64,000 nt of DNA, from the NCBI GenBank assembly GCA_900541795.1, contig UQLC01000010.1:4669-68668 (forward strand), written 5' to 3'. This document shows, piece after piece, positions 11,325-58,378 of the stretch. The first letter of the stretch is position 1. Each line of letters starts with the position of its first letter. The notes beneath the pieces are model-generated. The model did no database searches. It was not told the origin of the DNA and saw nothing but the letters and a program-made list of their open reading frames with translations. Source of the DNA: an uncultured Collinsella sp. GTDB taxonomy: Bacteria; Actinomycetota; Coriobacteriia; Coriobacteriales; Coriobacteriaceae. A program made the translations under genes and the position numbers.

Positions 11325-11397
11325 GTGAGTTGCGGTGAAATAAGGACTGTTTGGTGGGTGGAAGCCGCTATTCAATCCTTATTTCACCGCAACTTAG
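11325..11397. repeat. family-A palindromic repeat, copy 1 (REP/MITE-like)
   Basis: Arms agttgcggtgaaataagga (11328-11346) and tccttatttcaccgcaact (11376-11394) are perfect reverse complements. The same arm sequence occurs at 27542-27610 and 58308-58378. Confidence 0.75.
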
Positions 11398-13934: not shown

Positions 13935-14036
13935 GTCCCTGGGGTGGGGCCCACACATATCGTCCCGCGCGCAGTTTCGCAGCAAAGCGAGAATGTTTGA
14001 GCACGGGATGATATGTGTGGGCCCCACCCCAGGGAC
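13935..14036. repeat. long palindrome (33-bp arms) with a short family-B-like core, in the def-fmt spacer
   Basis: 13935-13967 and 14004-14036 are reverse complements apart from one G:T position. The 36-nt interior cgcgcagtttcgcagcaaagcgagaatgtttgagca shares ordered blocks CGCG.AGTT.CGCA / GCGAG / TGT..GAGCA with the cores at 20368 and 58094. Confidence 0.7.
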
Positions 14037-18616: not shown

Positions 18617-18697
18617 GGAAATCTCCTCGATTGCAGGATGGATGTCTAACCGCACCAGTATAAAGCATCAAAGCAACCTCCGCACAAAGGGCACCGA

Positions 18698-18787
18698 CCT
18701 ACTCATTGGGGACAGACTTAAATGACCAGTCGTTGGAGACGTTCTTAGTTTAAGGCTGGTCATTTATGTCTGTCCCCAATGAGTAGG
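18698..18787. repeat. 32-bp-arm palindrome in the divergent gltX/metK intergenic region
   Basis: cctactcattggggacagacttaaatgaccag (18698-18729) pairs with 18756-18787 with one mismatch. The 26-nt interior is unrelated to the other families. Confidence 0.7.
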
Positions 18788-18844
18788 TGCGGAAAGGGTG
18801 TGAATGTTTGATTTACGCGCTATGATGTGCCCTTGCATAGAGAG

Positions 18845-20211: not shown

Positions 20212-20250
20212 AAAAGAAGTACCGGCCCCAACCGGTACTTCTTTTTTATT
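20212..20250 (+). terminator. intrinsic terminator of metK
   Basis: aaaagaagtaccgg / ccccaa / ccggtacttctttt form a 14-bp stem followed by a T-run. Confidence 0.8.
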
Positions 20251-20341
20251 TAAAGGTGGTGAAGATGAGCCTACCTGGGACATGGAATAAATCACAGGCC
20301 GATAAATTTTGCAGCAGAGCGACTCCAACCATGTATCCTAA

Positions 20342-20462
20342 GTTCCGAGGGCTTTAGTATTTGGTCGATCGCGAGTTCCGCACGAGCCGGAGGCCACTTA
20401 ATGTGGCCTCCGTGCGAGCAGGACTGTCCGAGCAGGCGACCAAATACTAAAGCCCTCGGAAC
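20342..20462. repeat. family-B nested palindrome, copy 1 (26-bp unique arms plus conserved 69-nt core)
   Basis: The arms 20342-20367 and 20437-20462 are perfect reverse complements. The core 20368-20436 is nearly identical to 58094-58161. Confidence 0.8.
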
Positions 20463-20485
20463 GACGGGACAAAGAAGGAGCACCC

Positions 20486-22093
20486 ATGGCAGGCAAGCCG
20501 CAAACACTAGCTACGACCTCGGCATTCGAGATCTTGGGCCCCGTCATGGTCGGCCCCAGTTCATCGCACACCGCCGGCGCCCTGCGGTGTGCACAGGTGG
20601 CTGCCAGCCTGCTGGAAGGCCGCATCACCAAAGTCACCTTTGGCCTGTGGAACTCCTTCGCCCACACCTACCGCGGCCACGGCACCGACCGCGCGCTCGT
20701 CGCGGGCATCCTAGGCCTCGACACCGATGACGAGAACATCAAGCAGGCCTTCGACCTCGCACGCGAGCAGGGCCTCGAATATCACTTTGACATCAAGGGC
20801 GACGACGCGTCCATCCACCCCAACACCGTCGACATCGACATGGTCGACAACACGGGCGCTACGGCACAGGTCCGCGGCGAGAGCCTGGGCGGCGGCAAGA
20901 TGCGCATCAGCCGCATTAACGGCGTCGGCGTCGACATCTCGGGCATGTACTCCACACTCTTCGTGGCGCACTACGACGTCCCCGGCGTACTCGCCGCGCT
21001 CACCAACCTGCTCGCCTACGCCCACGTGAACATCGCCTTCTGCCGCACCTACCGCACCGAAGTGGGCGGCCAGGCCTACTCCGTCTTTGAGACCGACGGC
21101 ACACCCGACGACACCGTCATCCCCATGGTGCGCAAACTCGACAACGTCGGCTACGCCACCTTTATCGAGCTCCCTGGTTCTGCCTCGTCGCTCTCCCCCG
21201 GCGTCTCGGCCAAGGAAATCTTCGACGACGGCGAGCAGCTGCTCGATGCGTGTGAGGAACTGGGGCTCAGCATCGGCGCCGTCATGGCCGTTCGCGAGGC
21301 GCGTCTGACCGGTGAGGCCCACGCCGTCGCCGCCATGCGCCGCGTGCTCGACGTCATGCGCGAGGAGACCACGGCCCCCATCGCCAATCCGCAACGCTCG
21401 CTCGGCGGGCTTATCGGCGGCGAGGCCAAGCTCGTCGAAGCAACCGGCTGCAACGATTTGAGTGCAAGCCTGATGGGCGCCGTCCAGACCGACGCCGTTG
21501 CCCGCGCCATGGCCGTGCTCGAGCGCTCCGCTACCATGGGCGTGATTGTCGCCGCCCCCACGGCAGGCTCCGCGGGTGTTGTGCCCGGCTGCGTGCTGGC
21601 GCTCGCCGATCGCCTGCAGCTCGACGATGAGCAGGTCATGGACGCGCTCTACTGCGCAGCCGCAATCGGCCTCAACCTCACCACAAGCGCCTGTGTTGCC
21701 GGCGCCGAGGGCGGCTGCCAAGCCGAGGTGGGAAGCGCCGCTGCCATGGCAGCCGCCGCGTTGGTGCAGATGCTCGGCGGCACGCCCGAGCAGGCGCTCG
21801 ACGCCAGTTCCATCGCGCTGAGTAACCTGCTGGGCCTCGTTTGCGACCCCGTCGGTGGCCTCGTGGAGGTGCCCTGCCAAAACCGCAACGCCATTGGCGT
21901 GGCAGCGGCCTTTAGCTCGGCACAACTCGCCCTCGCAGGCATTAAGAGCTTGGTGCCGTTTGACCAGATGGCACATGTCATGCTTTCGGTGGGCCACGCG
22001 TTGCCGGCCACGCTGCGCGAGACGGCAAAGGGCGGCATCGCGCAGGCTCCGGCCGCACTTTCGGCCTGTGCAAAATGCGGTGTGTGCGGATAG
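20486..22093 (+). CDS. sdaA: L-serine ammonia-lyase, iron-sulfur type, fused beta-alpha single chain
   Basis: 535 aa. The N-terminus FEILGPVMVGPSSSHTAGA and an ACT-like segment are SdaAB-like. They are followed by the SdaAA-like alpha domain. RBS aaagaaggag lies upstream. Confidence 0.9.
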   Translation: MAGKPQTLATTSAFEILGPVMVGPSSSHTAGALRCAQVAASLLEGRITKVTFGLWNSFAHTYRGHGTDRALVAGILGLDTDDENIKQAFDLAREQGLEYHFDIKGDDASIHPNTVDIDMVDNTGATAQVRGESLGGGKMRISRINGVGVDISGMYSTLFVAHYDVPGVLAALTNLLAYAHVNIAFCRTYRTEVGGQAYSVFETDGTPDDTVIPMVRKLDNVGYATFIELPGSASSLSPGVSAKEIFDDGEQLLDACEELGLSIGAVMAVREARLTGEAHAVAAMRRVLDVMREETTAPIANPQRSLGGLIGGEAKLVEATGCNDLSASLMGAVQTDAVARAMAVLERSATMGVIVAAPTAGSAGVVPGCVLALADRLQLDDEQVMDALYCAAAIGLNLTTSACVAGAEGGCQAEVGSAAAMAAAALVQMLGGTPEQALDASSIALSNLLGLVCDPVGGLVEVPCQNRNAIGVAAAFSSAQLALAGIKSLVPFDQMAHVMLSVGHALPATLRETAKGGIAQAPAALSACAKCGVCG

Positions 22094-27529: not shown

Positions 27530-27541
27530 GCCACCACCAAC

Positions 27542-27610
27542 AAGTTGCGGTGAATTAGGGACTGAATATGCTATCTAGCAGCAAAAACAGACACTATTTC
27601 ACCGCAACTT
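27542..27610. repeat. family-A palindromic repeat, copy 2, at the left edge of the GC-rich B12 block
   Basis: aagttgcggtgaattagggactg (27542-27564) and cagacactatttcaccgcaactt (27588-27610). The arms are imperfect, with 3 mismatches. Confidence 0.7.
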
Positions 27611-27740
27611 ATTGAAGGGCTGCTTGCGCCAGTTCCGGGCGTCCTCCTCGAGCTATTGGCGGATGACGGTCTTGTACGGCTCGAGCTTGCTCGGGGCGCT
27701 CCTCCTCGCGGGCGAGAGGACGCGCAGGCGCGGCGAGCGC

Positions 27741-48274: not shown

Positions 48275-49591
48275 ATGGGGGAATTCGTGCCGCGGCCCAA
48301 AACGCTCGGAGGGGACATTCCATGCTTAGACAGTCCTGAGCTCGCACGAAAGCGTCAGAAGACACTTTCGGCTCGTGCGGAACTGCGCGCGGAACGCCTC
48401 CTTCGAGCGGAGTCGAACCTCGAAACCCCGGTCGAAACGCAGGCTGACGGAGCGCCGCTTTTCCGCATAAGCGACCTGTCGGCGGGCTACGACAAGAAGG
48501 TCGTAGTCGAAGGCGTCGATCTGGAGGTTCGCGCGGGCGACGTCGTGGCGCTCATCGGGCCGAACGGCTCGGGCAAGTCGACCATCTTGAAAACCATCAC
48601 ACGCCATCTGGCACCGCTTGCCGGCGCGGTCGAGCTCGACGGGCGGGAGATTTCCCGATGGAAGACGGCGGAGTTCGCAAGGAACCTTGCCGTTATGCTG
48701 ACAGATCGCCCCCGGACCGAGCTCCTCACCTGCCGCGATATCGTAGAGGCGGGAAGGCATCCCTACACCGGGCGAATGGGCACACTCTCGCCCGACGACC
48801 ATAGTCGGGTCGACGAGGCCATGAAAACCGCACATGTGGAAGAGCTCGCCGAGCGCGACTTCATGCAGATAAGCGACGGGCAACGCCAGCGCGTCATGCT
48901 CGCACGCGCCATCGCGCAGGATCCGCGCGTGCTCGTGCTCGACGAGCCCACGTCGTATCTCGATATCCGCTACCAGATCGACCTGCTGCGAATACTTCGC
49001 CACCTTGCGAAATCGCGAAATGTGGCTATCATCATGTCCATCCACGAACTCGAGCTCGCGCAGAAAAGCGCCGACAAGGTGATTTGCGTGAAGGACGGCC
49101 GGGTCTTCCGCGCCGGCGCACCCGAGGACATATTCACGCGCGAGACGATTGGCGAGCTCTACGGCCTTAAACATGGCACCTTCAACGAGCGCTTCGGCAG
49201 CGTGGAAATTGGGCGCCCACACGGCGATGCGCACACGTTCGTCATCGCCGGCGCAGGTACGGGGTCAGCTGTGTTTCGCCAGCTCATCCGGCAGGGCAAA
49301 GCGTTCTACGCGGGCGTTCTGCACGAAGGAGACATCGACTGCGAGCTCGCGCGCGACCTGGCGGCGGAATGCGTGGCCGAGCGCGCCTTCGAGACGATCG
49401 GAGATAAAACCATAGCCCGCGCCATAGAGCTCCTCATCCACTGCGCGCGCCTTATCGTGTGCCCCGCTGCCTTCGGCACCTTAAACGCCCGCAACGCAGA
49501 GCTCGTCGAGTTCGCACACTCGCATGGTATCGAGGTCATGCAAGCGTGCGAAGGCGCATCGGAGGATTCCCATTTGGAGTGGGAAGAATAA
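48275..49591 (+). CDS. ABC ATP-binding protein (FepC/BtuD type) with a 65-aa N-terminal extension and an extra C-terminal domain of about 140 aa
   Basis: Walker A GPNGSGKST, signature ISDGQRQRVMLARA, Walker B VLVLDEPTSYLD. The sequence then continues ...TFVIAGAGTGSAVFRQLIRQGKAFYAGVLHEGDIDCELA..., which is not part of a canonical NBD. The ATG directly follows the permease stop. Confidence 0.85.
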   Translation: MGEFVPRPKTLGGDIPCLDSPELARKRQKTLSARAELRAERLLRAESNLETPVETQADGAPLFRISDLSAGYDKKVVVEGVDLEVRAGDVVALIGPNGSGKSTILKTITRHLAPLAGAVELDGREISRWKTAEFARNLAVMLTDRPRTELLTCRDIVEAGRHPYTGRMGTLSPDDHSRVDEAMKTAHVEELAERDFMQISDGQRQRVMLARAIAQDPRVLVLDEPTSYLDIRYQIDLLRILRHLAKSRNVAIIMSIHELELAQKSADKVICVKDGRVFRAGAPEDIFTRETIGELYGLKHGTFNERFGSVEIGRPHGDAHTFVIAGAGTGSAVFRQLIRQGKAFYAGVLHEGDIDCELARDLAAECVAERAFETIGDKTIARAIELLIHCARLIVCPAAFGTLNARNAELVEFAHSHGIEVMQACEGASEDSHLEWEE

Positions 49592-57914: not shown

Positions 57915-58054
57915 AATTGACTCCTTTTTGTGTTTAACCCCTGTCATGCATGTGGCAGGAGTCAGATTCACGACGTTGTTTATATTAACTCACATCAAAC
58001 GGTTTTTCATTATGTTTCGGACGAATTGTTGGACAGATGTGTTTGTCGTCCGCC

Positions 58055-58200
58055 TGCTCGCCCACAGGGGCCCGTGCGCGGCCTGTGAGATTTATCGCGA
58101 GTTCCGCACGAGCCGAAGAGCACTTAATGTGCTCTTCGTGCGAGCAGGACTGTAGAGCAGGAAATCTCACAGGCCGCGCACGGGCCCCTGTGGGCGAGCA
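58055..58200. repeat. family-B nested palindrome, copy 2 (39-bp unique arms plus conserved 68-nt core)
   Basis: tgctcgcccacaggggcccgtgcgcggcctgtgagattt (58055-58093) is the perfect reverse complement of 58162-58200. The core at 58094-58161 matches 20368-20436 except for compensatory hairpin changes and a small difference near the 3' end (tgtagagcagg vs tgtccgagcagg). Confidence 0.8.
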
Positions 58201-58307
58201 AGCTGCGGAAACTCGGTCGGTCCAGAGCAATATCGTGCAAACGGAAATCTGGCTGATGATCTGTTCGCGACAAAGACTCGATAGGTAGCCCCCTCTATGC
58301 CCTTTTG

Positions 58308-58378
58308 TAAGTTGCGGTGAAATAGGGACTGCATTTGGGGTTGAATCGTTTAAACAGTCCCTATTTCACCGCAACTTA
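58308..58378. repeat. family-A palindromic repeat, copy 3 (perfect 24-bp arms)
   Basis: taagttgcggtgaaatagggactg (58308-58331) and cagtccctatttcaccgcaactta (58355-58378). Confidence 0.8.

Follow-up and report, generated by a model that had tools for sequence, protein, structure and literature searches.

A stretch of 64,000 nucleotides from an uncultured Collinsella sp. (contig UQLC01000010.1), referred to below as the window, contains a long palindrome directly upstream of the serine dehydratase gene sdaA. Its two arms enclose an asymmetric core that recurs elsewhere in the window between arms of a different sequence, and the locus thereby raises the question of what kind of element keeps its centre and varies its ends. 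The palindrome (copy 1) is a member of an abundant family of hairpin repeats in Collinsella, of which divergent copies occur in a metagenome-assembled genome (MAG) of the Eggerthellaceae and in unassigned gut contigs. The family is previously undescribed, with no match in Rfam or in the literature. At a little better than even chances, it is a dispersed hairpin repeat of the REP/ERIC kind with a selected recognition module in its core.

A hairpin family with a conserved core

The element is one long irregular hairpin of about 100-150 nt with an outer stem of 18-44 bp, the sequence of which is locus-specific. The helices of the proposed structure are numbered from P1, the inner arm, through P2 and P3 to the apical hairpin P4. 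The core junctions have the 5' consensus GCGAGTTCCGCACGAGCC and the 3' consensus GTGCGAGCAGGACTGTyyGAGC, and the apical helix is 9-10 bp long and free in sequence. Junction sequences are 97-100% conserved, and their columns are invariant in an alignment of 53 distinct cores. In the same alignment 93.9% of cells are paired under the proposed structure, compared with 78.3% in shuffles and 28-48% in slid controls. Two-sided changes are found in 14 of the 27 pairs (8 of 8 in P1 and 6 of 9 in P4); P2 and P3 are invariant and hence uninformative on covariation. The covariation score is 0.415, against 0.143 for shuffles and 0.06-0.14 for slid controls. The strong covariation of the inner hairpin, which the initial annotation had noted between two copies, extends over 57 distinct apical sequences with different loops and unchanged junctions.

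The divergent copies from the Eggerthellaceae MAG and from metagenomic contigs keep the junctions GCGAGTTCCGCACGAGCCGRA and TYCGTGCGAGCAGGACTGTyyGAGC, with quite different apical stems and 3-nt loops (AGT, AGC or TGT). Core subtypes are told apart by the stretch that adjoins the arms and by the register of their middle helix, and one of them has a clean C:G to T:A compensation there. The core is under strong purifying selection. Its helices with compensatory changes and its conserved unpaired positions are those of a structured RNA, and this pattern is equally expected of a DNA hairpin.

Within the window, an inverted-repeat check of copy 1 gave arms of 26 nt that are 100% complementary at a spacing of 69 nt, as first described. 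The recurrence of the core in copy 2 (58094-58161) was likewise borne out, with 90% identity between the two cores across their first 60 positions; probes of 15-20 nt from the core each gave two exact matches in the window, copies 1 and 2 only. The inner stems (CGGAGGCCAC/GTGGCCTCCG in copy 1, CGAAGAGCAC/GTGCTCTTCG in copy 2) differ at three positions per arm, every one of which is compensated, in agreement with the initial annotation. The single-stranded flanks, which it had described as invariant, differ on the 3' side (TGTCCGAGCAGG versus TGTAGAGCAGG), and the cores are 69 and 68 nt long, respectively. Folded as a single strand, copy 1 gives -80.5 kcal/mol (z = -10.9 against shuffles), with P2 and P4 recovered in the minimum free energy structure, and copy 2 gives -120.4 kcal/mol (z = -15.0). 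These z-scores, together with covariance scores of 100 and 94 bits, exclude chance for both copies. For each, the opposite strand folds as well as the core strand. Short-word BLAST and later the covariance model located a third copy in the window, which holds three good copies and a relic in place of the two originally reported.

The search for further copies elsewhere was productive. A pattern scan that used one genome per species identified at least 120 genome stretches, almost all labelled Collinsella and one from the Eggerthellaceae MAG, and a metagenome scan added 120 more stretches. Combined, the two scans gave 277 elements with full flanks in 68 locus groups (L-numbers below are labels of public genome stretches compared with the window). 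Copy density is 36 per Mb beyond the seeded matches and 47 per Mb in the window. As the host genome is presumably a little over 2 Mb in size, the number of copies per genome is estimated at a few dozen to about 100, extrapolation of the density giving roughly 80-100.

Elements occupy the same orthologous positions across many GTDB Collinsella species, with arms and core inherited together, and no insertion polymorphism or recent insertion was seen across about 25 multi-member locus groups. Every covered orthologous site is occupied except for one coreless allele upstream of valS in L119, where arms like those of L069 are closed by a 4-nt loop. Empty-site palindromes, considered in the initial annotation, are thus represented by this one orthologous site; metagenomes yielded no allele of copy 1 that lacks the core, with no count of core-containing alleles from the same collection as a denominator. 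Chimaeric copies also occur, L076 having a chimaeric P4 and L079, L083 and L158 mismatched arm pairs, and alleles and paralogues therefore recombine within the core. The neighbours of the elements are functionally unrelated housekeeping genes, and no recurrent neighbour protein (transposase, reverse transcriptase or nuclease) was found beside any element examined.

Concerted evolution of the arms

The arms of different copies were initially described as completely unrelated. Different copies have inner-arm sequence and motifs in common, and the description cannot be maintained. The 252 arm pairs span 18-44 bp (median 26 bp) and are 97.1% Watson-Crick paired, 141 of them perfectly. Paralogous arms share a subtype-specific inner sequence, for example ..GGCATAAGGTyG beside type A cores and TTTTCG beside type B. 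Positional identity exceeds that expected from composition to about 20 nt from the TTCCGCA core anchor, which corresponds to roughly the innermost 10 nt of the arm; beyond this point pairwise identity equals the composition expectation. CCCGG or CCGGG is present in 16 of 36 distinct arms, compared with 7.1 (maximum 14) in 1000 shuffles, and the 5' arm has a consistent excess of G (42%) over C (28%). Because the inner arms, the CCCGG motif and the G-rich 5' arm are shared, the whole hairpin is homologous among copies. The copies descend from one common hairpin and their arms are diverged homologues.

Identity between orthologues is 97% in the core, 87% in the arms and 90% in the flanks. At the def-fmt site, strains with identical Def show 83% identity at third codon positions, 89% in the rest of the spacer, 67-73% in the outer arms and immediate flanks, and 97% in the centre of the element. 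Hypervariability of the arms was considered and rejected, since the comparison with third codon positions places them at about the neutral rate. Many of the changes between orthologues are two-sided, with both arms altered together; among strains with an identical SdaA protein, for example, an A:T to G:C change in copy 1 is compensated across both arms. The mismatches that remain in the arms (19 GT/TG, 21 AC/CA and 27 others) show neither strand bias nor tolerance of G-U pairs. Drift in the arms is close to neutral, but Watson-Crick pairing is preserved. Near-perfect pairing at this rate, with no G-U tolerance, therefore points to the copying of one arm from the other, not to slow pairwise compensation in an RNA.

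Template switching between the arms of an inverted repeat during replication homogenizes the arms and inverts the spacer (PMC8604942, PMC8794818). The 68-nt core of copy 2 is inverted relative to six other Collinsella genomes with the same flanks, as four aligned genomes confirm, and L012 has arms identical to those of copy 2 in the window, nearly identical flanks and the core in the opposite orientation. This inversion would follow from template switching between the arms, because the same process also inverts the spacer. Flips are rare: there is one among the 277 grouped elements, to which is added the core at the relic locus in L007, a site compared separately from the grouped set. The core can invert between its arms, and the arms evolve in concert. 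Concerted two-arm changes, inversion of the spacer between unchanged arms, and arms that evolve no slower than neutral sequence are all found here, and template switching is probably the mechanism that maintains the arms, as read from these footprints.

In the L022/L117, L014/L017 and L065/L114 groups a further outer inverted repeat (e.g. CAACGGCAACCCTGGCTG, or TCTGAATGCCGGG) lies beyond the main arms. It encloses an internal loop of about 15 nt on each side and gives two-tier hairpins of about 200 nt.

Position and polarity

Gene arrangements were counted at 42 loci with usable flanks and are written in the orientation of the core. They are (+,+) at 16 loci, (+,-) at 15, (-,-) at 11 and (-,+) at none, and the probability of finding no divergent arrangement is about 6e-6 if a quarter is expected. 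At 23 of the 42 loci an open reading frame (ORF) boundary is found within 40 nt of the 3' side of the element, against 0 of 42 for the 5' side (Fisher p = 3.5e-9), and the median distances are 28.5 and 231.5 nt, respectively. Divergent promoter regions are avoided, and the elements have a strict polarity with respect to the nearest ORF boundary.

The boundary on the 3' side is mostly the stop codon of an opposite-strand gene, 0-33 nt away, the transcript of which would then contain the reverse complement of the core. For a minority it is a same-strand start codon at 9-25 nt. Among these are copies 14-25 nt from the start codons of sdaA (in two lineages), valS, cysS and a serA-like gene, all of which have in common a GRCGGGA motif followed by a Shine-Dalgarno sequence on the right of the arm. 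When convergent genes have two elements between them, each element adjoins the stop codon of its own gene in the same relative orientation. As the polarity is alike at starts and stops, it points to a property of the DNA or to the placement or growth of the element, not to one function at the level of the transcript. Core orientation has no relation to local GC skew, used as a proxy for replication direction (10 of 23 loci).

The upstream genes retain canonical terminators of their own. T makes up 16% of the 12 nt that follow the right arm and A 27% of the 12 nt that precede the left arm, with no T or A run beside the arms.

The copies in the window and their settings

The coordinates of the features are collected in Table 1.

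Table 1. Copies of the hairpin element and associated features in the window (nt positions of the window).
Feature	Position	Strand	Description
metK intrinsic terminator	20212..20245	+	14-bp stem and T run; upstream of copy 1, outside the element
Copy 1, 5' arm	20342..20367	none	26 nt; perfect complement of 20437-20462
Copy 1, core	20368..20436	+	69 nt, asymmetric; 100 bits with covariance model R1
Copy 1, proposed P2	20374-20378 / 20421-20425		AGTTC / GGACT
Copy 1, proposed P3	20379-20383 / 20412-20416		CGCAC / GTGCG; bulge GAGCC
Copy 1, inner hairpin P4	20388..20412	+	inverted repeat 20388-20397/20403-20412; perfect 10-bp stem, loop TTAAT
Copy 1, 3' arm	20437..20462	none	ends 23 nt upstream of the sdaA ATG (20486)
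Copy 2, 5' arm	58052..58093	none	42 nt, 98% complementary to 58162-58203 (39 nt perfect)
Copy 2, core	58094..58161	+	68 nt; 94 bits with the covariance model
Copy 2, 3' arm	58162..58203	none	42 nt, partner of 58052-58093
Copy 3	48303..48409	-	72 bits; core 48322-48390; decayed arms 48391-48409/48303-48321 (19 nt, 79%)
Copy 4 (relic)	13935..14036	+	between def and fmt; arms 39 nt at 92%; 13.8 bits with R1

Copy 1 is flanked by metK and by the gene for a fused beta-ACT-alpha serine dehydratase (sdaA), the start codon of which is one nucleotide nearer to the arm than the 24 nt first given. The dehydratase is encoded by one fused ORF (20486-22093, 535 aa) with SDH_beta, ACT and SDH_alpha domains, and there are no separate alpha and beta chains. 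Human gut metagenomes are the source of the contigs with an identical SdaA. Among strains with this protein, some 55 nt of the DNA that separates copy 1 from the metK terminator (20270-20325) are highly variable and are bracketed by the conserved blocks AATTTTGCAGCA and ACCATGTATCCTAAG. The blocks could be -35/-10-like, which is no more than a hint of a promoter; a promoter scan called no consensus sigma-70 site around copies 1 and 2, these blocks included. With the metK terminator upstream and conserved blocks 5' of the arm amid variable DNA, it is plausible from the sequence that copy 1 is part of the sdaA leader or 5' untranslated region (UTR).

Upstream of sdaA in L005, L108 and L112, a right-arm remnant of another arm allele (ATGCCCCGCCCCTCGGGAC...) lies downstream of an element of the window type; unequal recombination has therefore taken place between two arm alleles at one locus. 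A different palindrome is found upstream of metK at 18697-18788, with 33-nt arms (97%) and a 26-nt spacer, and some strains have two or three tandem copies of its arm. It was considered as a second family of the same architecture and rejected, as its arms are conserved, its centre is variable and it occupies a single locus.

Copy 2 lies between a fructose-type phosphotransferase system (PTS) IIBCA gene and ptsH-ptsI-pfkB, all on the minus strand. The Collinsella PTS-ptsH locus with copy 2 is also present in L049 (CAVHBE010000073.1), a 4-kb contig binned as Methanobrevibacter smithii, which is almost certainly binning contamination. Only about 100 nt from copy 2 is the 58308 member of a second palindromic repeat family (11328-11394, 27538-27614 and 58308-58378), which has conserved arms (AGTTGCGGTGAAATAGGGACTG and its complement) and a spacer of about 23 nt; BLAST of the 58308 member gave 57 matches among the fetched loci.

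Copy 3 lies in frame within an ABC-ATPase ORF (48275-49591), directly after a FecCD permease gene. The ABC_tran domain begins at residue 79, the only in-frame starts (ATG 48275 and GTG 48287) are upstream of copy 3, and the reading frame across the copy is kept open in nine genomes; copy 3 is therefore translated. The relic, copy 4, has a shortened core (GCAGTTTCGCAGCAAAGCGAGAATGTTTGAGCA) that lacks P4. It was identified mainly by orthology, L047 and L082 having a full core at the same site.

Two further observations concern the sequence data. In L110 near 7920 (minus strand) and at the end of L122 the contigs stop inside the element and continue as CTGTCTCTTATACACATCTG, a Nextera adapter, which is an assembly or trimming artefact at the hairpin. 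Between 28000 and 44000 the window has a G+C content of 0.67-0.69, compared with about 0.61 elsewhere, and a more negative GC skew, and this block could differ from the rest in its origin or in the genes it holds.

Nature of the element

The initial annotation was right that the unit is structured and repeated, that its interior is conserved and its arms are particular to each locus, and that it is neither an ordinary MITE or REP nor a duplicated terminator. The preferred explanation is a REP/ERIC-like dispersed hairpin. The complementarity of the arms would be kept mainly at the level of DNA by replication template switching, through which the arms become homogeneous and the spacer is occasionally inverted. 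The conserved core would serve as the binding module of a conserved trans-acting factor. Where it is co-transcribed, the element would form a very stable stem-loop at the mRNA end, like REP and ERIC, and either protect the mRNA or be processed. In the case of copy 1, the sdaA leader would contain, 23 nt from the ATG, a hairpin with a folding energy of about -80 kcal/mol.

Several observations weigh against this explanation. Conservation of the core across families of the Coriobacteriia is unusually deep for a selfish repeat, and a simple REP/ERIC-like model does not lead one to expect the strict polarity to ORF boundaries. The perfect arms could instead reflect selection for perfect double-stranded RNA. 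Mismatches in P4 lean to wobble on the core strand, 19 against 10, which hints at an RNA read from the core strand. The coreless L119 allele is compatible with mobility of the core. Finally, the hairpin has no U tract on either side, and classical termination is unlikely.

A more far-reaching proposal can be entertained tentatively, as a rather doubtful one: that the core is the working part of an undescribed system of the Coriobacteriia. It would be a structured RNA or single-stranded DNA module (a new motif recognized by a protein, an RNA that processes itself or a substrate for a hairpin-specific nuclease) that marks ORF boundaries in fixed polarity and either sets the mRNA ends of dozens of housekeeping operons or directs a one-sided, replication-coupled growth of the arms.

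A functional structured RNA, whether a cis-regulatory leader, a 3'-UTR element or a self-processing RNA, would have active internal loops and a closing helix that needs only to pair, and copy 1 would regulate sdaA. This is unlikely. The junctions conserved and helices covarying over a deep phylogenetic range, the P4 wobble bias, the GRCGGGA motif followed by a Shine-Dalgarno sequence in the start-codon subset, and the conserved blocks amid variable DNA upstream of copy 1 would all suit such an RNA, but at most loci it is the reverse complement of the core that lies on the strand transcribed from the adjacent gene. Moreover, the core of copy 2 is flipped in the window genome with no other change, one copy is translated in frame, the neighbouring genes are functionally unrelated and Rfam gives no match even at E up to 10. 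As regards a single functional strand, GT/TG and AC/CA mismatches are even in the arms (19 against 21), wobble leans to the core strand in P4 alone, and orientation to genes is mixed. The non-coding RNA with a free closing helix put forward in the initial annotation is thus supported by the covariation, but not by the arms, which show no strand-specific G-U tolerance, nor by a core that occurs in either orientation and can flip.

Less probable again is a DNA hairpin or cruciform site read by a conserved enzyme (a HUH/RAYT-like nuclease, a recombinase or a topoisomerase), which would drive the spread of the element and possibly a one-sided growth of the arms up to the coding region. HUH enzymes of the IS200/IS605 and REP/RAYT systems recognize bulged, imperfect hairpins. 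The orientation rule is the same at starts and stops (23:0) and so is a property of the duplex rather than of a transcript; the behaviour of the arms is symmetric between strands, and their homogenization and the inversion of the spacer imply that hairpins form frequently in replication. However, no associated enzyme gene was found beside any copy, core orientation is uncorrelated with local GC skew, the conserved parts are central and not terminal as in REPINs, and there is no evidence of ongoing mobility.

It is improbable that the core alone is mobile, a module of about 70-80 nt (the core and a few bp of the inner arm) that inserts at the apex of unrelated palindromes already in place (terminators, for example), whose old stems would simply be the arms. 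The arms-only site of L119, several orthologous sites with the same core and greatly differing arms, the subtype-specific inner arms, and the position of copy 3 within an ORF, which implies a past insertion, are as such a module would predict. Set against these are the sequence, motifs and composition common to the arms of paralogues, the fixed orthologous positions, with no insertion polymorphism in the locus groups, and the failure to find a coreless copy 1 allele in metagenomes. Neither a target-site duplication nor a transposase neighbour was seen, and the chimaeric copies L076, L079, L083 and L158 are differences between alleles by recombination within the core. As arm divergence is about neutral, ancient copies of a whole hairpin would look unrelated in any case. 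Apex insertion, the first suggestion of the initial annotation, is accordingly not favoured: paralogous arms are homologous, arms and core are co-inherited and no recent insertions were seen.

Lastly, that the element is an ordinary transcription signal is very improbable, both as a long intrinsic terminator and as an inverton (an invertible promoter switch): many copies start 0-33 nt past a stop codon, with enrichment between convergent genes, and a core bounded by inverted repeats is inverted at copy 2, but there is no T or A run beside the arms, upstream genes have canonical terminators of their own, a scan for intrinsic terminators called that of metK and not copy 1, 5' leaders and one ORF are among the places where copies lie, neither the core nor its surroundings yielded promoter-like hexamers, flips are restricted to one of the 277 grouped elements and L007, and the arms are not conserved as recombinase sites would be.

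Significance

Collinsella and the Eggerthellaceae are common human gut Actinobacteria, the non-coding DNA of which is almost unexplored. The family provides dozens of very stable hairpins per genome beside core genes (sdaA, valS, cysS, ptsH, def-fmt, rplJ and groES), and is likely to affect where mRNAs end, the polarity of operons and the local stability of the genome. It also provides a natural case, unusually clear, of palindrome arms that evolve in concert and of spacer inversion, probably by template switching, and bears on the old question of how stems that are both long and perfect are maintained. It is, moreover, an 'inside out' repeat family, with a conserved centre and free ends, and its absolute rule of orientation to ORF boundaries is not predicted by current REP, ERIC or MITE models. 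Finally, the deeply conserved core offers a defined bait for a protein or RNase that reads it.

Comparison with known families and systems

Covariance models of Rfam 15 were searched at the gathering threshold over the whole window and at E up to 10 over 20300-20500. The former search returned one tRNA only. The latter gave weak, generic long-hairpin matches of the miRNA type, the best at 24.8 bits against a gathering threshold of 79, and the element belongs to none of the Rfam families, including T-box, riboswitches, ribozymes, Y RNA-like and the Collinsella-1 motif. Resemblances to group II intron domain V, signal recognition particle RNA, the T-loop, the K-turn, boxA and CsrA sites did not hold up on inspection. 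Strings of the core sequence were not found in any of the papers searched, nor was anything specific on Collinsella or Eggerthella repeats found in the literature. In viral contigs the core gave 26 matches, all of them noise on profile search, and the idea of a phage origin or a spacer-like nature was dropped; the arms, searched as spacer-like copies of other DNA, had no ectopic matches apart from paralogous elements.

Among mobile and invertible elements, MITEs have conserved terminal inverted repeats, whereas here the outer ends of the arms are the least conserved part, and no direct repeats of a target-site duplication lie beside the arms. An inverton would have conserved arms and a promoter-like site, neither of which was found, and the single flip among the grouped elements with the L007 relic is not that of a switch. 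Integron attC sites and the subterminal hairpins of IS200/IS605 resemble the element in that they are read as a folded single strand, with a stem that varies and bulges or extrahelical bases that are recognized. In attC, however, the conserved boxes are at the base of the hairpin and the apex is variable, the reverse of the Collinsella element, and no integrase, cassette array or TnpA was found near the copies.

Template-switch inverted repeats, known from quasipalindrome correction, share the homogenization of the arms, compensated changes of several nucleotides and the inversion of the spacer (PMC8604942, PMC8794818). They represent a mutational mechanism and not a family of elements, and leave the conserved core, the spread in many copies and the polarity unexplained.

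The REP/BIME and REPIN-RAYT repeats of the Proteobacteria are likewise short, abundant extragenic palindromes that lie after genes or inside operons and avoid divergent promoters, form stable hairpins in mRNA and single-stranded DNA and persist by vertical inheritance. In REPs and REPINs, imperfect-palindrome arms of 20-40 nt are conserved and the loop or spacer is free, whereas in the Collinsella element the arms are locus-specific and the centre is conserved. Furthermore, no GTAG-type 5' motif or RAYT neighbour was seen for the Collinsella elements, and REPs are species-specific while the Collinsella core is conserved across families.

ERIC (IRU) and the Correia/NEMIS elements of Neisseria are also imperfect palindromes, 100-150 nt long; they occupy transcribed intergenic DNA in both orientations, have a functionally important centre and act through mRNA stability or RNase processing. 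They align over their full length with conserved terminal inverted repeats, and Correia elements have target-site duplications. The Collinsella family, in contrast, is alignable only in the core and about 10 nt of the inner arm, shows no target-site duplication, and has a strict polarity to ORF boundaries that has not been described for ERIC or Correia. The Rickettsia palindromic elements (RPE) are palindromes in frame within coding genes, as is copy 3 in its ABC-ATPase ORF, but the Collinsella family is overwhelmingly intergenic, with one in-frame copy seen, and has no sequence relationship to them. The closest kinds are thus the dispersed palindromes of the REP, ERIC, Correia and RPE type, from which the Collinsella family is set apart by its conserved centre and free ends, the depth of its conservation, its template-switch footprints and its absolute polarity.

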